IMG/VR virus record: IMGVR_UViG_2534681672_000003 | Coordinates: 1-56,022 of that record | Reading direction: 5' to 3' (one strand) | Origin: a virus | Taxonomy: Duplodnaviria > Heunggongvirae > Uroviricota > Caudoviricetes | DNA: 56,022 nt | The notes under the pieces: generated by a model | What the model was told of the DNA's origin: nothing | Databases searched by the model: none | The model's input: the letters and a program-made list of their open reading frames with translations, nothing else | In this document: piece by piece, positions 2,519 to 56,022 of the stretch | Layout: the number at the start of each line of letters is the position of its first letter | How positions within the stretch are numbered: the stretch's first letter is position 1 | Position numbers and translations under genes: made by a program

Positions 2519-4914
2519 TTAATACTCTCCCCCATTTGCGCATCAGTTAATTCTTTATGCCAGAGACGAAGATTTCTCAAATGGCCGAATAGATGACGAG
2601 TTCCCGATGTGGCTTGACCTCCAATTCGAATAAAGGTCCGTGTTTTTACGCCCGTCCACTCCGTTTTCATAGTTTTAGTAGCCTCACCGTTAGAAACTAC
2701 TCGTTTAGTACCATCAGAATAAATATTAAAACCACCAATGAATTTTCGAACATCAGTTCGACCAGCAAACACACTAGAAACGTAAGTACTTGTCGACGCT
2801 TTATAAGTTTGTATATAAAGCTGACCGTAACATTTCTCAGTTGTGTTAAAAGCGTATGTAATTGACTCAATAGGTGGCACACCAGAAAAATCAAAAATAC
2901 GCGGTGCTACATTAGGAGGAATATCGCCCCAATTTCTATTGACCTCGACAAGACACGTAAGCGGTCTATTATAGATATTATTTTCAGTTGGGATCGTCAC
3001 CATATCACTGGAGCGGGTTGCGGGTGCAGTTGTCGTAATAACAAAAGATGAAGCACATCCGCCGTTTTCAAATTGTGGTGTTGCAAGGTAAATATAATCT
3101 CCCGCTTCAGTTATACCACCTTTTTTCGGCGCATACTGAATCATTGCGCCAATTAAGGCTTCACCTTCAACAGCTTCTATAGTTGCCTCATAGAAAATCC
3201 ACCCTGTAACCGGATCTTTAGTTGCAGTAGCTGCTATTCTATTGGCTGCTCCGCCAGTTTTTTCTATTATCAGAGTTCCGAAAGTTAAATAAGCATCTCC
3301 TAAAAATGTATAAACCGACCCATCGTATTTTTCAAAACGCAAACGACAACGAAGACCATCAGGAGCTTTAACCCTGCATGAAACAGTGCAATACTTATTA
3401 TCGCCACTAACATCAATCCCCCGGGATGCACTGCATGTATGCAGACTAAGTGCAGATGATTGTCCTGTCATATTATCTTTTGTTCGCATTTTGGCATATG
3501 AAAAACCAAATTCATCAACACCATTATTAGTTTTATCGATATTGCTGGTACTCGTCCATTCAGCGGGAGTATTGGATTTAACAAAATAGTTAGTGCGCTG
3601 TCCTTCAATCAATAAACCTTCTTTTTCAAATCGTGGCTCATCAATTTTAGCAACACTAAATACGCCTGATTTATTGATATATGTGGCAGTTGATGCGCGT
3701 TTAAACTTAACAACCTTGTCGCCAGGCATCGTTATTTCATCATCACCAATAACAATTTTTTTATATGACGGCGAAAAGCCCGTAATCATATCCAGTGAAT
3801 CGTTAAACGGTATCCACACATCAGGCAGTGGCTGTAAGACATATTTATACGGCTCTGCTGCCTGACTTGCATACTCTCTGGCTGCGTCTTCACTTGCTTT
3901 AGCTGCTGTCTGGCTTGCTGCCGATGCTTTCGCCGAGTTCGCCGCTGCAGTCTCGCTTGTCTTTGCATTGGTTTCACTGGTTTTTGCCGCTTTTTGACTG
4001 TTGGCTGATGCAGTGGCAGAAGCAGCCGCCGCGCTTGCAGAACCAGCTGCCGCGCTCTCGCTTTGGGCTGCTGCAACCTGGCTGTTTTTCGCCGCAGTTT
4101 CGCTGGCTTTGGCATTCGTTTCGCTGGTCTTCGCTGCCGTCTGGCTGGACTTTGCGTTAGTTTCACTCGTCTTCGCAGCTTTCTGGCTGTTAGCCGCAGC
4201 AGTTGCTGATCCAGCTGCTGAAGTCGCAGAACCGGCTGCCGCGCTCTCGCTTTGGGCTGCTGCAACCTGGCTGTTTTTTGCCGCAGTTTCACTGGCTTTG
4301 GCATTCGTTTCGCTGGTTTTCGCTGCCGTCTGGCTGGACTTTGCGTTGGTTTCGCTCGTCTTTGCGGCTGTCTCGCTATTTTTCGCGTTGGTTTCTGATT
4401 TTTTGGCTGCTGTCGCGGAGTTTGCCGATGCAGTCTTTGAGGTCGCTGCCGCCTGTGCACTATTAGCTGCATTCGTTTCTGAGGTTTTCGCCGCGTTCTT
4501 TGATGATGCCGCTGCAGTTTCGGATTTCTTTGCCGCCGCTGCGCTCTGAGAGGCGGCTTCGGCGTTGCGTGCCACTTCTTCCACCATTGCCTCAAAACGA
4601 CGCAATGCCTCCGGCATGACATCATCTTCCGTCATGGCACCGAGAAAATCATTCAGCGTACCTGGTCTGGAGCCTTCATAGACGGTAATGGTCCCGGCAT
4701 GTGAAGGCGGAAAACCTTCAACCAGCAGGGTGACGCTGTACTGGCCATACTCAACATCCATGCTGTAACGTCCGGCTTCATCCGGATTTTCAGAAGCCAC
4801 CGTGTTCACCAGTACCGTGGTGCTGTTACGCTTTGCCTTCAGTTGAATAGTGCAGTTCTGTATTGGTTTTCCCGCACCATCTTTCAGCACACCTGAGATT
4901 TTTACTGCTGCCAT
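2515..4914 (-). CDS. stf: side tail fibre protein Stf (lambda-like N-terminus, repeat-rich shaft, distinct C-terminal domain)
   Basis: N-terminus MAAVKISGVLKDGAGKPIQNCTIQLKA matches lambda Stf from memory; start trimmed to ATG at 4914. Confidence 0.85.
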   Translation of the reverse strand: MAAVKISGVLKDGAGKPIQNCTIQLKAKRNSTTVLVNTVASENPDEAGRYSMDVEYGQYSVTLLVEGFPPSHAGTITVYEGSRPGTLNDFLGAMTEDDVMPEALRRFEAMVEEVARNAEAASQSAAAAKKSETAAASSKNAAKTSETNAANSAQAAATSKTASANSATAAKKSETNAKNSETAAKTSETNAKSSQTAAKTSETNAKASETAAKNSQVAAAQSESAAAGSATSAAGSATAAANSQKAAKTSETNAKSSQTAAKTSETNAKASETAAKNSQVAAAQSESAAAGSASAAAASATASANSQKAAKTSETNAKTSETAAANSAKASAASQTAAKASEDAAREYASQAAEPYKYVLQPLPDVWIPFNDSLDMITGFSPSYKKIVIGDDEITMPGDKVVKFKRASTATYINKSGVFSVAKIDEPRFEKEGLLIEGQRTNYFVKSNTPAEWTSTSNIDKTNNGVDEFGFSYAKMRTKDNMTGQSSALSLHTCSASRGIDVSGDNKYCTVSCRVKAPDGLRCRLRFEKYDGSVYTFLGDAYLTFGTLIIEKTGGAANRIAATATKDPVTGWIFYEATIEAVEGEALIGAMIQYAPKKGGITEAGDYIYLATPQFENGGCASSFVITTTAPATRSSDMVTIPTENNIYNRPLTCLVEVNRNWGDIPPNVAPRIFDFSGVPPIESITYAFNTTEKCYGQLYIQTYKASTSTYVSSVFAGRTDVRKFIGGFNIYSDGTKRVVSNGEATKTMKTEWTGVKTRTFIRIGGQATSGTRHLFGHLRNLRLWHKELTDAQMGESIK
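4038..4415. repeat. in-frame 189-bp tandem duplication inside stf, itself built of 42-bp (14-aa TSETNAKxSQTAAK-like) sub-repeats
   Basis: Near-identical blocks start at about 4038 and 4227 (offset 189 bp). Confidence 0.75.
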
Positions 4915-30208: not shown

Positions 30209-31581
30209 TTACACTGGTGTGTTCAGCAAATCGTTAACGGCATCAGATGCCGGGTTACCTGCCGCCAGCGGTGTCGGTGCCCCCTGCATCAGACGATCCA
30301 GCGCAGTGTCACTGCGCGCCTGTGCACTCTGTGGTGCTGCGGCCAGAATGCGGCGGGCCGTTTCCACGGTCATACCGGGGGTTTCTGCCAGCACGCGGGC
30401 CTGTTCTTCGCGTCCGTGAGCCTCCTCACAATTGAGGATCCCCATAATGCGGCTGTTTTCTGCCGCAACCGCTGCGGTGATCTGTGCGTTCACGTCCGGC
30501 TGCGCCGCGCTGGCGTTCTCGCCCTCTGTCGCTGACACCACGTCAGTAACGTCAGCCTGCAAAGCAGTGGCTGAAACAGTTGTTGATTGAGTCTCTTTGG
30601 TCATTCGCCCTCCTGAGAGACGGGATTTACGTGCATCCAGTGCCTCACGCATAACGGTGATCGCATCGGTGCTGTTGACAAGTTCATCAGCCAGTCCGGC
30701 ATCAATGGCCTCCTGACCGCTGTACACTGCAGCCTCGGTATCCAGCACAGCCTGCACGGACAGGCCGGTATATGCCGACACCTTCTGCGCAAACATCCGG
30801 CGGGTTGCATCCATCCGGGACTGCAGTGTCTCCCGGACGTCATCCGGAAGATGGCTGTAGGGGTTGCCATCCACCTTATGGCTGCCGCTGTAAATCAGCG
30901 TGATTTCCACGCCCTGTTTCTCCAGCGCAGCACCGTTTGCCATCCACCTTATGGCTGCCGCTGTAAATCAGCGTGATTTCCACGCCCTGTTTCTCCAGCG
31001 CAGCACCGTAATTACTGTGAGCCATCATGACGCCGATGGAGCCTGTCCGGGCGGTCTGCGTGACCAGACGCCGGGAGGCGGCACTGGCAAGCAACTGACC
31101 TGCACTGCAGTTCATGTCGTTGGCAAGCGTCCATACCGGTTTTATGTCACGCACACGGGCGATGATGTCAGCGCAGTCAAATGCCCCCGCCACCATCCCG
31201 CCGGGCGTGTCCATATCGAGCAGAATGCCGTCCACCATCGGATCGCTGGCAGCCTGTTGCAGACGGGCGATAATGCCGTTGTAACCGGTCATCCCCGAGT
31301 ACGGCTGCAGCGCCCGCGTCCGGCTGACCAGCGTGCCGGACACCGGCAGCACGGCGATGCCGTTCATGACCTGATAACTGCGGGCCTGTCGTGGTCCGTC
31401 ATCATCACCGGATAATGCCAGCGTCGCGAGTGCCTCCTGGGCAGTCAGGCTGTCGCCGGACACCGCATCCGTCAGGCGGCTGATCCCAAGCTGGCCTGCA
31501 AGCGCACAAAAGAAAACCCGCGCATAGGCGGGTTCAAGCATCAGCGGCTCATTAAAGGCCATACTGGCAATATGCGGGAGA

Positions 31582-51554: not shown

Positions 51555-52340
51555 ATGAGTACAGCACTCGCAACGCTGGCAGGGAAGCTGGCTGAACGTG
51601 TCGGCATGGATTCTGTCGACCCACAGGAACTGATCACCACTCTTCGCCAGACGGCATTTAAAGGTGATGCCAGCGATGCGCAGTTCATCGCATTGTTGAT
51701 CGTCGCCAACCAGTACGGCCTTAATCCGTGGACGAAAGAAATTTACGCCTTCCCTGATAAGCAGAACGGCATCGTTCCGGTGGTGGGCGTTGATGGCTGG
51801 TCCCGCATCATCAATGAAAACCAGCAGTTTGATGGCATGGACTTTGAGCAGAACAATGAATCCTGTACATGCCGGATTTACCGCAAGGACCGTAATCATC
51901 CGATCTGCGTTACCGAATGGATGGATGAATGCCGCCGCGAACCATTCAAAACTCGCGAAGGCAGAGAAATCACGGGGCCGTGGCAGTCGCATCCCAAACG
52001 GATGTTACGGCATAAAGCCATGATTCAGTGTGCCCGTCTGGCCTTCGGATTTGCTGGTATCTATGACAAGGATGAAGCCGAGCGCATTGTCGAAAATACT
52101 GCATACACTGCAGAACGTCAGCCAGAACGCGACATCACTCCGGTTAACGATGAAACCATGCAGGAGATTAACACTCTGCTGATCGCCCTGGATAAAACAT
52201 GGGATGACGACTTATTGCCGCTCTGTTCCCAGATATTTCGCCGCGACATTCGCGCATCGTCAGAACTGACACAGGCCGAAGCAGTGAAAGCTCTTGGATT
52301 CCTGAAACAGAAAGCCACTGAGCAGAAGGTGGCAGCATGA
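51555..52340 (+). CDS. bet: Bet (Red-beta single-strand annealing protein)
   Basis: 261 aa, lambda Bet-like. Confidence 0.96.
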
Positions 52341-53017
52341 CACCGGACATTATCCTGCAGCGTACCGGGATCGACGTGAGAGCTGTCGAACAGGGGGATG
52401 ATGCATGGCACAAATTACGGCTCGGCGTCATCACCGCTTCAGAAGTTCACAACGTGATAGCAAAGCCCCGCTCAGGAAAGAAGTGGCCTGACATGAAAAT
52501 GTCCTACTTCCACACCCTGCTGGCTGAGGTTTGCACCGGTGTGGCTCCGGAAGTTAATGCTAAGGCGCTGGCCTGGGGAAAACAGTACGAGAACGACGCC
52601 AGAACCCTGTTTGAATTCACTTCCGGCGTGAATGTTACTGAATCCCCGATCATCTATCGCGACGAAAGTATGCGCACCGCCTGCTCTCCCGATGGTTTAT
52701 GCAGTGACGGCAACGGCCTTGAACTGAAATGCCCGTTTACCTCCCGGGATTTCATGAAGTTCCGGCTCGGTGGTTTCGAGGCCATAAAATCGGCTTACAT
52801 GGCCCAGGTGCAGTACAGCATGTGGGTGACGCGAAAAGATGCCTGGTACTTTGCCAACTATGACCCGCGTATGAAGCGTGAAGGCCTGCATTATGTCGTG
52901 ATTGAGCGGAATGAAAAGTACATGGCGAATTTTGACGAGATGGTGCCGGAGTTCATCGAAAAAATGGACGTGGCACTGGCTGAAATTGGTTTTGTATTTG
53001 GGGAGCAATGGCGATGA
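52337..53017 (+). CDS. exo: lambda exonuclease Exo (Red-alpha)
   Basis: 226 aa, lambda Exo-like. Confidence 0.96.
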
Positions 53018-53175
53018 AGCATCCTCACGATAATATCCGGGTAGGCGCGATCACTTTCATCTACTCCGTTACAAAGCGAGGCTGGGTATTTCCCGGCCTT
53101 TCTGTTATCAGAAATCCACTGAAAGCACAGCGGCTGGCTGAGGCGATAAATAATAAACGGGGGCTGTATGACTGA
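53014..53175 (+). CDS. small hypothetical protein
   Basis: 53-aa ORF read by hand; overlaps the exo stop and the methyltransferase start. Confidence 0.3.
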
Positions 53176-53725
53176 TTTCACCGGAAGCAATACTCCTGCC
53201 GAACATCGCGACAGCTGGCGCACACCACCAGAGATTTTTGCTGCGCTTAATGCAGAGTTCGTTTTTCAACTTGATGCTGCCGCCAGCGAAAAAAACCGAC
53301 TATGTCGGCTTTTTATCTCACAGGAGCAGAACACATTAACCACTTCATGGCCTGAAGCAATGGGATATGCCTCTGGTTATGTCTGGTTGAATCCACCATA
53401 CAGCAATATTTCCCCTTTTGTGAAAAAGGCAGCCACTGAAAACAAATTCAGTAGTGTGGGATGTGTAATGTTATTGCCTGCTGACACATCTGTCGGATGG
53501 TTTCATGAAGCGATACAAACCGCCAGTGAGGTCAGATTCATCACGGCAGGACGACTGGCATTTATTAACCCACTCACTGAGAAACCCGTCAGTGGAAATA
53601 ATAAAGGCTCGATGCTCATTATCTGGCACCCATACCCCCGTACACACTGCCACTTTACGACCGTTGATCGTGGAGAGTTGATGGCGTTCGGCTCAAGGAT
53701 TCTTGCCCGTCGGGAGGCTGCATGA
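53168..53725 (+). CDS. phage N6-adenine DNA methyltransferase (Dam-like, orphan)
   Basis: NPPY motif in WLNPPYSNI; no adjacent restriction enzyme gene. Confidence 0.8.
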   Translation: MTDFTGSNTPAEHRDSWRTPPEIFAALNAEFVFQLDAAASEKNRLCRLFISQEQNTLTTSWPEAMGYASGYVWLNPPYSNISPFVKKAATENKFSSVGCVMLLPADTSVGWFHEAIQTASEVRFITAGRLAFINPLTEKPVSGNNKGSMLIIWHPYPRTHCHFTTVDRGELMAFGSRILARREAA

Positions 53726-53805
53726 CAACCACGGAATGCATTTTTCTGGCAGCGGGCTTCATATTCTGTGTGCTTATGCTTGCCGACATGGGACTTGTTC
53801 AATGA
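53722..53805 (+). CDS. 27-aa hydrophobic micropeptide (MTTTECIFLAAGFIFCVLMLADMGLVQ)
   Basis: Read by hand; ATGA overlaps at both ends couple it to its neighbours. Confidence 0.3.
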   Translation: MTTTECIFLAAGFIFCVLMLADMGLVQ

Positions 53806-54017
53806 CACCTCAGCAGGAAAACGCCCTTCGCAGCATTGCCCGTCAGGCTAATTCTGAAATCAAAAAAGCCAGACAGCAGTTTCCGGATAAAAACGTCGAT
53901 GACATTTGCCGTAGCGTACTTAAGAAGCACCGCGAAACGGTAACGCTGATGGGATTCACACCGACTCATTTAAGCCTGGCGATCGGCATGTTAAACGGCG
54001 TCTTTAAGGAACGGTGA
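53802..54017 (+). CDS. hypothetical protein
   Basis: 71 aa from MTPQQENALRSIARQ...; start coupled to the micropeptide stop. Confidence 0.4.
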   Translation: MTPQQENALRSIARQANSEIKKARQQFPDKNVDDICRSVLKKHRETVTLMGFTPTHLSLAIGMLNGVFKER

Positions 54018-54115
54018 ACATGAAAAGCAAAATCATCAGGGAGCTACAGGCTCCTTTTTTATTGTTCGCATTCATCCTCAAGCGTATTAACCAACAATTC
54101 AGGGATTAATGGAAG

Positions 54116-54334
54116 ATGGCAGACATCATTGATTCAGCATCAGAAATCGAAGAATTACAGCGCAATACAGCAATAAAAATGCGTCGTCAGAACTACCAGA
54201 CTGTATCCGCAACTCATTGTTGTGAGTGTGGCGATCCGATAGATGAGCGAAGACGCCTGGCTGTTCAGGGTTGTCGGACTTGTGCAAGTTGCCAGGAGGA
54301 GATCGAACTTAAGAACAAACAATGGGGACTGTGA
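54116..54334 (+). CDS. TraR/DksA-family C4 zinc-finger protein
   Basis: CCECGDPIDERRR...CRTCASCQ four-cysteine motif. Confidence 0.75.
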   Translation: MADIIDSASEIEELQRNTAIKMRRQNYQTVSATHCCECGDPIDERRRLAVQGCRTCASCQEEIELKNKQWGL

Positions 54335-54381
54335 TGGCCTCAAAGCAGCAAATTTCAACATCGTCCAACTGAGGTGTAAAA

Positions 54382-54660
54382 ATGTTCAGAATCATTTTTC
54401 CTAACACCTGGTACGTCGACCACCACGGCACTCCCTGCAAAATCCTGCGTTCTACCCACAACAAAGTTCACTACATCCGAAAAGGCAGAACATGTATCGC
54501 CAGCATGTTCCGCTTTAATCATGACTTTGAACCTGTGAATAAAGCTGATGCAGATCGGATAGCAGAAGAGCTCGAAACGGCAGAACACATTAAGAAGTTA
54601 CGTGACATGCGTTCAAAAAGCAGAGGTAACCATGGAATCATACAGCCTCACACTCGATGA
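54382..54660 (+). CDS. hypothetical protein
   Basis: 92-aa ORF upstream of xis. Confidence 0.35.
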   Translation: MFRIIFPNTWYVDHHGTPCKILRSTHNKVHYIRKGRTCIASMFRFNHDFEPVNKADADRIAEELETAEHIKKLRDMRSKSRGNHGIIQPHTR

Positions 54661-55003
54661 GGCCTGTCAGTTTCTTAAGATATCCAGACCAACCGCCACC
54701 AACTGGATACGAACAGGCCGCCTACAGGCAACACGTAAAGATCCAACCAAGCCAAAATCTCCTTACCTCACAACACGGCAAGCCTGCATTGCGGCGCTTC
54801 AGTCTCCGCTGCATACTGTCCAGGTGAGCGCGGGTGATGGCATAACAGAGGAAAGAAAATGTCACTCTTCCGCAGAAATGAAATATGGTATGCCTCGTAT
54901 TCGCTCCCGGGCGGGAAACGAATTAAGGAATCTCTTGGCACAAAGGACAAGCGGCAAGCTCAGGAGTTGCACGACAAGCGAAAAGCAGAACTCTGGCGAG
55001 TAG
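54632..55003 (+). CDS. xis: excisionase (AlpA/Xis-type HTH)
   Basis: [29 protein letters not shown]; GAGG RBS; overlaps the int start. Confidence 0.7.
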
Positions 55004-56022
55004 AAAAGCTAGGGGATTTACCTGATGTCACTTTTGAAGAGGCCTGCCTAAGATGGCTTGAGGAAAAAGCTGATAAAAAATCTCTCGATTCAGATAAAAG
55101 CCGGATTGAGTTCTGGCTTGAACATTTTGAGGGTATAAGGCTTAAAGATATCTCGGAGGCAAAGATTTACTCTGCTGTAAGCAGAATGCATAACAGAAAG
55201 ACGAAAGAAATATGGAAACAGAAAGTTCAGGCCGCCATCAGGAAAGGTAAAGAACCGCCTGTTTATGAACCAAAGCCAGTATCAACTCAGACAAAGGCAA
55301 AGCATCTTGCCATGATAAAGGCCATTCTCCGTGCTGCAGAACGCGACTGGAAGTGGCTGGAAAAAGCGCCTGTCATCAAGATACCAGCGGTCAGAAACAA
55401 GCGAGTCAGATGGCTGGAAAAGGAGGAAGCAAAACGCCTTATTGATGAGTGCCCCGAACCACTGAAATCTGTCGTCAAGTTTGCGCTGGCAACTGGTCTG
55501 AGAAAGTCGAACATCATAAATCTGGAATGGCAACAAATCGACATGCAGCGACGAGTTGCCTGGGTGAATCCAGAAGAGAGCAAATCAAACCGCGCCATTG
55601 GTGTGGCGCTGAACGATACCGCCTGTAAAGTGTTGCGTGATCAAATAGGCAAGCATCACAAATGGGTGTTTGTACATACCAAGGCGGCTAAGCGAGCAGA
55701 TGGAACATCAACGCCTGCGGTCAGGAAGATGCGCATCGACAGCAAGACATCATGGCTATCAGCTTGTCGTCGTGCAGGAATTGAAGATTTCCGTTTCCAT
55801 GACCTCAGACACACCTGGGCAAGCTGGCTGATTCAGTCAGGCGTCCCATTATCAGTGCTTCAGGAAATGGGCGGATGGGAGTCCATAGAAATGGTTCGTA
55901 GGTATGCTCACCTTGCGCCTAATCATTTGACAGAGCATGCGAGGAAAATAGACGACATTTTTGGTGATAATGTCCCAAATATGTCCCACTCTGGAATTAT
56001 GGAGGATATAAAGAAGGCGTAA
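54859..56022 (+). CDS. int: tyrosine integrase, P22-type
   Basis: 387 aa, MSLFRR...[11 protein letters not shown]...VRRYAHL matches P22 Int as recalled; stop codon is the last codon of the window. Confidence 0.9.

Follow-up and report, generated by a model that had tools for sequence, protein, structure and literature searches.

A conserved 27-codon open reading frame, probably encoding a membrane micropeptide, precedes orf61 in the exo-xis region of a lambda-like prophage

We analyzed a stretch of 56,022 nucleotides (nt) of a Caudoviricetes record (IMG/VR IMGVR_UViG_2534681672_000003), referred to below as the window, and in particular its chain of small overlapping open reading frames (ORFs) around a gene for a Dam-family DNA methyltransferase (below, Dam). 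This region is a segment of the leftward early, N-antiterminated pL operon, the "exo-xis" segment, of a lambda-like prophage. Our main subject is p27, an ORF of 27 codons between dam and a gene for a protein of 71 amino acids (aa), orf61. Judging by the substitutions among its copies, the p27 frame is under purifying selection, and p27 very probably is a translated single-helix membrane micropeptide. Taken as a whole, the interpretation that we consider likely is that of a lambdoid pL chain in which Dam has been swapped into the slot of orf63, the gene found there in lambda, and in which p27 is a genuine coding gene for a non-essential membrane factor of early lytic growth. The coupled chain and the orphan Dam are already known, routine lambdoid biology.

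By a rough estimate, the probability of a chance open 27-codon frame between two ATGA junctions is about 0.1, and the geometry alone is weak evidence. That p27 is more than a chance ORF follows from the comparative analysis. We pooled copies of the region from IMG/VR, a metagenome scan, and phage records, anchoring them on a 23-mer outside the tested region. The substitution sample comprised 302 copies with 88 haplotypes; each distinct site-and-allele variant was counted once, and 25% of variants were expected to be synonymous. In the frame of p27 (frame A), we found 13 synonymous and 12 non-synonymous variants (P=0.0034), and when only variants seen at least twice were retained, the numbers were 12 and 7, respectively (P=5e-4). 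Seven of the eight variants having at least ten copies were synonymous in this frame. The two other frames of the same region gave 4:21 (frame B, the upstream extension of orf61) and 6:19 (frame C), neither being significant. As a control, the 71-aa gene in its own frame yielded 22:25 (P=0.001), and the codon position with relaxed constraint shifts frame exactly at the ATGA between p27 and orf61. The ratio of non-synonymous to synonymous polymorphism (pN/pS) was 0.29 for p27 and 0.36 for the 71-aa orf61. Moreover, the 27 codons are kept in 308 of 312 copies, and the other four have CAA replaced by TAA at codon 27, with the coupling kept as TAATG.

The predicted peptide, MTTTECIFLAAGFIFCVLMLADMGLVQ, has a grand average of hydropathy of 1.62, and by 16-residue hydropathy it ranks second among the 258 ATG-started ORFs of 20-40 aa in the window (top 0.8%). 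Its core, CIFLAAGFIFCVLMLA, is a hydrophobic segment of membrane-spanning length (16 residues, mean hydropathy 2.81), with E5 and D22 on either side. The peptide has a net charge of -2 and contains no lysine, arginine, or histidine residues. Most likely, p27 is a single-helix inner-membrane peptide, as this composition suggests; having no lysine or arginine, it would be invisible to tryptic proteomics. The label of a "membrane-active factor", proposed for it in an earlier sequence-only reading of the window, would have hydrophobicity as its sole basis.

The same reading had held that a peptide of this size could be missed by annotation. This is what happened in RefSeq/PGAP and in both lambda records, where p27 is absent: PGAP calls the 71-aa form of orf61 and leaves an unannotated 77-nt gap over p27. 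The claim does not extend to all databases, as p27 is present as UniRef A0A0A2SGE8 and as a few "hypothetical proteins" in GenBank. We found no paper that contains the p27 sequence or mentions a separate ORF at this place, no match to p27 in the small-gene supplements for enterohaemorrhagic Escherichia coli, and no significant match in Pfam, PHROGs, NCBIfam, or PADLOC. The p27 segment occurs in 3138 of 5426 complete E. coli genomes (58%).

Several observations weigh against p27 being a membrane-peptide gene. The substitution sample is modest, with 25 variant events in closely related and partly non-independent sequences, and part of the p27 signal is shared by an antisense frame whose wobble positions line up with those of p27 (10:15). 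The peptide departs from the positive-inside rule, its flanks being E5 and D22, and a membrane helix with no basic residue is unusual. In a review of lambda ribosome profiling, only novel peptides of 7 and 31 aa, and none of 27 aa, are listed for this region. Further, p27 is dispensable: the arrangements of the SfI type and the Klebsiella type lack it, and in Escherichia sp. E1V33 it has been lost through a 14-nt deletion that joins its ATG, together with a strong GGAGG, to orf61 in frame B. Finally, Orf61 of the E. coli type and p27 occur only in phages of Escherichia, which limits any case for deep conservation of p27 itself.

According to the interpretation we favor, that of a genuine p27 gene in a coupled chain, p27 would be read in its own frame from the ATGA overlapping the upstream stop and would end at the ATGA (GTGA or TAATG in some copies) starting orf61. 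Ribosomes terminating on Dam, or on orf63, would reinitiate at the ATG of p27, helped in the Dam context by GGGAGG 4 nt upstream, and those terminating on p27 would reinitiate on orf61, whose own Shine-Dalgarno sequence is weak. The peptide would then insert in the inner membrane and serve as a dispensable accessory factor of early lytic growth, co-expressed with Orf61.

Among the alternatives, we regard it as unlikely that p27 is a membrane-damaging toxin, of type I or holin-like, which depolarizes or permeabilizes the host membrane upon induction. Its size and hydrophobicity are within the range of IbsC, ShoB, DinQ, and TisB. In addition, the deletion of exo-xis in Phi24B lowers the expression of degP (-3.0 log2), htpX (-2.4), ibpAB, and sigma-32 genes in infected cells, which fits an envelope-stressing product (PMC10789677). 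This change would fit a membrane-stressing peptide; however, it is equally attributable to the TraR-like Orf73, which is as good a candidate. TraR of the F plasmid activates sigma-E promoters. Besides, p27 has no cationic or amphipathic flanks, and we saw no antisense RNA or antitoxin arrangement: there are 3 promoter-like sites compared to 2.5 expected, none of them facing p27. An anionic peptide with no antisense RNA or promoter seen does not conform to a type I toxin-antitoxin system. Neither PADLOC nor any toxin or holin family of PHROGs gave a match. Moreover, 58% of the complete E. coli genomes contain p27, in an operon with strong expression upon induction, and plasmids bearing the region have not been reported to be lethal.

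It is also improbable that p27 is a relay ORF, so that the act of translation carries ribosomes from the cargo gene to orf61 and covers the mRNA, while the peptide itself is functionless. Such a relay would account for the ATGA overlaps at both ends of p27, for the start of orf61 having only a weak GGGA 8 nt upstream, for the preservation of the coupling geometry by the variants with the orf61 ATG changed to GTG and with TAATG at the end of p27, and for the dispensability of p27 where a methylase abuts orf61 directly. However, it would leave the amino acids unconstrained, whereas pN/pS is as low in p27 as in orf61. The three unrelated kinds of ORF found at this position in Yersinia-type loci, described below, each encode about 30 aa and a single hydrophobic helix, and a coding signature is seen in one of these families, which also speaks against a relay. 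Nor did we find an RNA structure in need of unwinding, as the fold around p27 is no better than that of shuffled sequences (z = +0.58); by the same result, a regulatory RNA structure was rejected. Two further candidates were dismissed: an antisense gene (minus-strand ORF 53655-53789) misses the last 16 nt of p27, loses its ATG in an 11-copy variant, and has a C-terminus varying with the cargo, and a programmed -1 frameshift between p27 and orf61 lacks an X_XXY_YYZ site, the only T-run being broken in several haplotypes.

In the last alternative, which we hold to be very unlikely, the p27 segment would be translated in the frame of orf61 as the N-terminal 22-32 residues of a longer Orf61 of 93 or 103 aa (61 aa in lambda). 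The orf61 frame is indeed open through the segment, long Orf61 is annotated in lambda, VT2-Sakai, phages of the Phi24B type, and many records of E. coli, the extension is part of PHROG 303, and in E1V33 an ATG with the strong GGAGG is in the orf61 frame and yields a 93-aa protein. However, the ratio of 4:21 in the extension frame means no constraint. Its internal Met is lost in 34 copies (ATG to GTG), the 103-aa form is abolished in 118 copies by a G-to-T change at offset 11 that creates a TGA stop, and no usable Shine-Dalgarno sequence precedes the ATG of frame B at 53736. Further, the extension is missing from distant homologues, which, like the homologue in SfI, all start at the Met of the 71-aa form, and the latter is what PGAP now calls. 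The published AlphaFold and RoseTTAFold models of Phi24B Orf61 disagree only on residues 1-23 and agree from residue 24 onward (PMC8614690).

The search for homologues of the 71-aa protein in phage records (tblastn) produced full-length matches with 29-47% identity in temperate phages of Klebsiella, Yersinia, Enterobacter, and Vibrio. All of these align from residue 1, mostly starting with MTP, and none has an N-terminal extension; CobraSix is among the phages with such a homologue. In Erwinia phages, the matches are partial (residues 1-50, 44-46% identity). The homologues are all encoded near xis/int, and the synteny of orf61, between the orf63 slot and the TraR-like orf73, matches that in lambda, ev243, and VT2-Sakai. 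The homologue in SfI has the same start position and its own GAGG Shine-Dalgarno sequence. Given the starts of the homologues, in SfI in particular, and the agreement of the models from residue 24, these comparisons indicate that the 71-aa gene is the real Orf61. The 61-, 93-, and 103-aa forms of "Orf61" beginning inside the p27 segment are annotation artefacts, and the family is better defined by its 71-aa core. The 71-aa protein is sometimes called "cell division protein ZapA" by PGAP.

In lambda, the 84 nt of p27 are identical (30925-31008, complement) and lie inside the annotated "orf61" (30839-31024), which is made up of 32 codons that cross p27 in the other frame, codons 1-22 of the 71-aa gene, and seven out-of-frame codons. 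The latter result from an A-run that has six residues in the window (A6, 53866-53871) and seven in lambda (A7, at about 3160-3170 of the minus strand in our locus L003). Due to the A7 run, the true Orf61 of lambda is truncated to 29 aa. The A7 allele is present in reference lambda, HK630, O276, and re-sequenced lambda stocks, and most other lambdoid phages have A6 and an intact gene. In the records of Shiga-toxin (Stx) phages, a 93-aa Orf61 starts at an ATG inside p27.

We also looked for deep homologues of E. coli-type Orf61 and p27. The scan of a genome collection retrieved almost only lambda spike-in contamination and one Escherichia species, and the "divergent" matches from protein searches turned out to be frameshifted copies; both were rejected. 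The orf61 matches in unrelated bacteria (Shewanella, Pseudomonas, Bradyrhizobium, Paenibacillus, Kitasatospora, and others; loci L005-L026) mostly carry the frameshifted allele of lambda, and some of the contigs are about 48 kb long, resembling contamination of assemblies with lambda control DNA.

The position of p27 inside the annotated orf61 bears on published genetics. Bloch et al. (2014) used the primer CTTCATATTCTGTGTG*TTATGCTTGCCGACAT to remove one bp "in orf61" of lambda and observed that phage development was delayed after induction with mitomycin C or peroxide (PMC4195576). The deleted C is lambda 30957, equivalent to 53773 in the window, and falls in codon 18 of p27, 5' of the real orf61 ATG. 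The predicted product of the mutant is MTTTECIFLAAGFIFCV followed by 25 unrelated residues, reading across the orf61 start. Since the mutation is in p27 and only 29 aa of Orf61 are left in lambda to begin with, the phenotype is most simply read as a consequence of losing p27 or its coupling function. In the study of Dydecka et al. (2018), the whole annotated orf61, including p27, was replaced by an 87-nt scar, with a minor effect in lambda and a stronger one in Phi24B (PMC6213356). The stronger effect in Phi24B, where Orf61 is intact, implies a contribution of Orf61 itself, and no published mutant separates the two genes. The ribosome-profiling data cited in favor of "orf61" would fit translation of p27 equally well, and the two-hybrid interactions of "orf61" would involve a chimeric ORF, if the annotated sequence was cloned. 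It appears that a conserved membrane-peptide gene of 27 codons, missing from the reference annotations, is present in lambda and in most Shiga-toxin phages. The "Orf61" of the deletion, frameshift, two-hybrid, and modelling work is a chimera of p27 read in the wrong frame and the real Orf61, truncated in lambda. Therefore, the phenotypes of published mutants and the interaction results call for re-assignment.

A gene for a small membrane-type peptide just 5' of orf61 is, as far as gene arrangements tell, a recurrent, not a universal feature. We examined 36 loci of the Yersinia type and found in about 24 of them a hydrophobic one-helix ORF of 29-36 aa 5' of the Orf61 homologue, either ending 3 nt before its start or overlapping it as ATGA. 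Many of these ORFs are preceded by the same GGAGGCAGCATG element. The encoded peptides belong to three unrelated families (MKRKISDGAWFWIYLIGYTVAATLYIVSNAG; MDDLSFVMAYLDWILLIVGVGVALWLLWVKEW; MNQPKVTEILIGICFALFIICLVVYVVGDAMNGVSM); in the second one, MDDLSFVMAYLDWILLIVGVGVALWLLWVKEW, 32 of 61 variants are at codon position 3 (P=0.0016). Unlike p27, these analogues carry K/R flanks. None of the three families matches a PHROG, and family searches with them gave nothing significant. No such peptide gene was found at the loci of the Klebsiella, Vibrio, Erwinia, and SfI types. In the Yersinia phage vB_YenM_210.17 (L348, 2402-2497), the hydrophobic ORF is unannotated and ATGA-coupled to an S-adenosylmethionine-dependent methyltransferase, and further unannotated hydrophobic ORFs of 29-36 aa are present at loci L350-L385.

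One could go further and suppose that p27 and the Yersinia-type ORFs of about 30 aa form a recurrent class of membrane micropeptides that work together with the homeodomain-like Orf61 in the early lambdoid operon, and that the phenotypes published for lambda "orf61", delayed development and more lysogens, are those of p27. We offer this as a tentative and rather doubtful suggestion. If it is true, p27, present in over half of the complete E. coli genomes, would have an unnoticed part in the choice between lysis and lysogeny made by the best-studied phage.

The gene upstream of p27 varies among phages. Megablast against 50,697 phage records yielded 189 matching ones, of which PhiR30_1 alone is matched over the entire query; all other records give two separate matches that leave out the methyltransferase. 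Of the 5426 complete genomes of E. coli, 244 have the Dam version. The gene order exo, orf60a, orf63 (DUF1382), the same 84-nt ORF, and the same downstream gene is shared by ev243, lambda, and VT2-Sakai. On the left, five slot architectures are near-identical through GATAAATAATAAACGGGGGCTGTATG and diverge right after the ATG of the cargo, so that the last codons of orf60a are set by the cargo gene that follows. On the right, homology to every phage of the orf63 type restarts at 53720-53722 of the window, that is, at the ATG of p27. It follows from the two boundaries that Dam replaces orf63 from the start codon to the stop codon; on this alignment evidence, Dam is a cassette in the orf63 slot, introduced by a precise ORF-for-ORF replacement.

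Among 322 copies of the slot, we found orf63 in 265, Dam in 35, a 250-aa gene of the SfI-gp34 type in 16, and a DndB-family gene in one. In the arrangement of the SfI-gp34 type, p27 is removed as well. The SfI gene (L110, 423-1175; 250 aa) is annotated in RefSeq as a "queuine tRNA-ribosyltransferase" and has no match in Pfam or PADLOC, and the slot of Escherichia sp. E1V33 (L008, 1371-2438) is occupied by a 355-aa gene of the DndB family, associated with DNA sulfur modification. The orf63 slot seems to collect DNA-modification genes. In the 73 examined loci of the Klebsiella type, a DNA methyltransferase of one of several unrelated kinds is almost always encoded 5' of the Orf61 homologue, with an ATGA overlap. 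In Klebsiella phage 2 LV-2017 (L347, 2501-2722), a 73-aa Orf61 homologue, ATGA-coupled to a cytosine methylase, is unannotated in GenBank.

The right boundary coincides with a short element. In the window, Dam ends with ARREAA and a stop, and GGGAGGCTGCATGAC comprises a Shine-Dalgarno sequence, the last three codons of Dam (E-A-A), the stop, and the next ATG; the ATGAC of this element belongs to p27. The DndB-family cargo of E1V33 ends with TEAA and a stop in the same junction element, and the bet/exo junction (52325-52341) resembles it. About half of the Klebsiella-type methylases end with E-A-A and a stop, encoded by the last 12-15 nt, GGGAGGCAGCATGAC(G/A), and the rest use the variant GGGGGTCGCATGAC. 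There, the element (loci L386-L458, position about 1485-1505) supplies the Shine-Dalgarno sequence and the start of orf61. Overall, GG(A/T)GGCNGCATGAC recurs across genera, in about half of the methylase/orf61 junctions and in the dam/p27, DndB/orf61, and bet/exo junctions. Due to the shared junction element, otherwise unrelated cargo proteins carry the same C-terminal Glu-Ala-Ala. The element may serve as microhomology for cassette exchange. The right boundary of the cassette is the conserved GGAGGCNGCATGAC junction, giving the next gene its Shine-Dalgarno sequence and start, and the left boundary is the ATG of the cargo. The orf63 slot, with its alternative genes that are mostly DNA methylases, offers a handle on the shuffling of accessory genes in temperate phages.

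The assignment of the present cargo to the Dam family is clear. It scores 190.5 bits against PF05869 (cutoff 28.1), covering profile positions 1-168 of 169, and 165.6 bits against TIGR01712 (cutoff 97), and the catalytic NPPY motif is at residues 75-78 (WLNPPYSN). Characterised members of this family methylate GATC. The window holds a single Dam-like gene. It is 46.6% identical to the Dam encoded in the nin region of Stx phages and phage 434, and 39% identical to Dam of HP1; no solved structure is related to it by sequence, and it has no close relative that has been characterised. Its nearest relatives, with 66-73% identity, are Dam domains encoded directly 5' of Orf61 homologues in Klebsiella and Enterobacter phages, some of them fused to a second methylase domain. 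The prophage of E. coli 2013C-3264 (L233, 7056-8895) has an identical exo-Dam-p27-orf61 arrangement and, in addition, a second, nin-region Dam split by IS3; the window, unlike this prophage, has no nin-region Dam. The window contains 145 GATC sites, compared to 217 expected from base composition (observed/expected 0.67), a mild deficit.

As the sequence-only reading had stated, the methyltransferase comes with no partner restriction enzyme. We found no partner nuclease among the neighbors in 51555-56022, the only part of the 56-kb window covered by the nuclease search, as all of them, namely bet, exo, orf60a, p27, orf61, the TraR-like gene, DUF4222, xis, and int, are otherwise identified, and the best PADLOC model for Dam is "orphan methyltransferase". 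Presumably, phage DNA is methylated by Dam soon after induction or infection, with the activity and target that the family would lead one to expect. The family membership also makes an anti-restriction role plausible. The slots of Klebsiella phages, with Dcm-like and other methylases that are often paired, would favor general self-protection of DNA over a role specific to Dam.

Instead, Dam could blind MutH-directed mismatch repair by fast GATC methylation on both strands, aiding Red (exo-bet) recombination of diverged sequences, or could set phage expression or packaging; we find this quite improbable. Dam overproduction is known to inhibit mismatch repair, Red recombineering works better in mismatch-repair mutants, and the dam gene is two genes 3' of bet-exo in the same coupled chain. 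Also, GATC is already methylated by E. coli, so that extra protection has limited value in this host. However, the Klebsiella-type slot holds Dcm-like and other C5 methylases, often two, that are unrelated to MutH and resemble general DNA self-protection, and the slot of E1V33 holds a DndB-family gene. Moreover, with only 46.6% and 39% identity to the nin-region Stx and HP1 enzymes, respectively, Dam of the window need not share their target site.

The features of the region are collected in Table 1. The chain of exo, the 53-aa ORF, the methyltransferase, the 27-aa ORF, and the 71-aa ORF, joined by ATGA or other overlaps, had been proposed from the sequence alone, and every ORF and junction was confirmed. 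The arrangement suits translational coupling, with an overlap or abutment of stop and start at each same-strand junction; judging by this geometry, a ribosome finishing one gene could reinitiate on the next. The ATGA is at 52337 for bet/exo, where the junction reads GGTGGCAGCATGACA, at 53014 for exo/orf60a, at 53722 for dam/p27, with the GGGAGG 4 nt upstream, and at 53802 for p27/orf61. The orf60a/dam junction is an 8-nt overlap, ATGACTGA, at 53168-53175. Since a GGGGAG Shine-Dalgarno sequence is situated 8 nt 5' of the ATG at 53014, the 53-aa start of orf60a is preferred over the ATG at 53008. The orf60a homologue immediately follows exo and scores 110 bits against PF07026 (cutoff 22.3).

Table 1. 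Features of the exo-xis region (positions in the window).
Feature	Position	Strand	Basis or remark
bet (RecT family)	51555..52340	+	PF03837 E=2e-33
exo (lambda exonuclease, YqaJ domain)	52337..53017	+	PF09588 E=6e-30
orf60a homologue (DUF1317, 53 aa)	53014..53175	+	PF07026 E=5e-32, PHROG 1998
Dam-family N6-adenine methyltransferase (185 aa)	53168..53725	+	PF05869, TIGR01712
Junction element GGGAGGCTGCATGAC	53710..53726	+	right-hand cassette boundary
p27 (27-codon ORF)	53722..53805	+	ATGA at both ends
True Orf61 (71 aa)	53802..54017	+	PHROG 303 E=4.7e-36, residues 1-71
29/31-aa ORF MNMKSKIIRELQAPFLLFAFILKRINQQFRD	54014 (GTG) or 54020 (ATG)..54109	+	ORF list
Terminator-like hairpin AGGGAGCUACAGGCUCCUU and U-run	54038..54065	+	terminator scan, fold
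orf73 homologue (TraR/DksA zinc finger)	54116..54334	+	PF01258 E=3e-9
DUF4222 protein	54382..54660	+	PF13973 E=2e-19
Excisionase-like helix-turn-helix (HTH) ORF	54632..55003	+	PF12728 HTH_17 E=4e-9; ORF list
Integrase (int)	54859..56022	+	ORF list

The coupled chain extends one gene further than had been noticed, to the 29/31-aa ORF, which is joined to orf61 by a GTGA overlap at 54014 or starts at the ATG at 54020, 2 nt past the stop. Its peptide begins with MNMKSKIIRELQAPFLLFAF, and the ORF is annotated in SfI and 1H12. The review of the region mentions a 31-aa peptide from lambda ribosome profiling (PMC8614690), and the 29/31-aa ORF is probably this 31-aa "orf2313". Its variants are few (5 synonymous and 6 non-synonymous). 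The hairpin inside this ORF (-19 kcal/mol, z = -3.8) is, as we suspect, possibly a classical terminator of the pL operon. Its sequence is that of the predicted "t2" of Bloch et al. (2014), and mRNA is lower downstream of it in lambda (PMC4195576). Orf73 of lambda has been characterised (PMC9239242).

In an E. coli genome identical to the window over 53000-54110 (NZ_CP027544), PGAP annotates the counterpart of exo as a "lambda exonuclease family protein", and the counterpart of the integrase gene adjoins a tRNA-Arg gene. The excisionase-like region is a partial HTH pseudogene according to PGAP in this genome; in the window, the excisionase-like ORF overlaps the start of int by 145 nt, compared to the 23-nt overlap of xis and int in lambda.

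The closest known system is lambda's exo-xis region (orf60a, orf63, orf61, and orf73), studied in the laboratories of Wegrzyn and Donaldson. The gene order, strand, and junctions are the same, and the DNA is near-identical in exo, orf60a, p27, orf61, and orf73. By contrast, in the window Dam replaces orf63, and orf61 is an intact 71-aa gene with A6, whereas lambda has the A7 frameshift; moreover, publications on exo-xis count the p27 segment as a 5' portion of orf61. With the exchange of modules in mosaic lambdoid genomes, the slot shares the precise swap of cargo between conserved flanks and the presence of unrelated genes in one place. Unlike in general lambdoid mosaicism, the right boundary here is a defined Shine-Dalgarno-stop-start element of about 15 nt (GGAGGCNGCATGAC), common across genera.

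Similar to the orphan Dams of the PF05869/TIGR01712 type (those of the nin region of Stx phages and 434, of T1-like phages, and of HP1), Dam of the window has hidden Markov model scores well above the cutoffs, the NPPY motif, a length of about 180 aa, and no nearby nuclease. It differs from the nin-region Stx/434 and HP1 enzymes in being only 39-47% identical to them and in occupying the exo-xis slot rather than the nin region. As for p27, it would be a new, apparently undescribed member of the small membrane proteins. With MgrB, AcrZ, and KdpF, and with TisB and DinQ, it shares a length below 50 aa, one hydrophobic segment of helix length, and the tendency to be overlooked by gene callers. 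Unlike these proteins, it shows no family similarity, has no basic residues, lies inside a coupled phage operon, and is faced by no antisense RNA.

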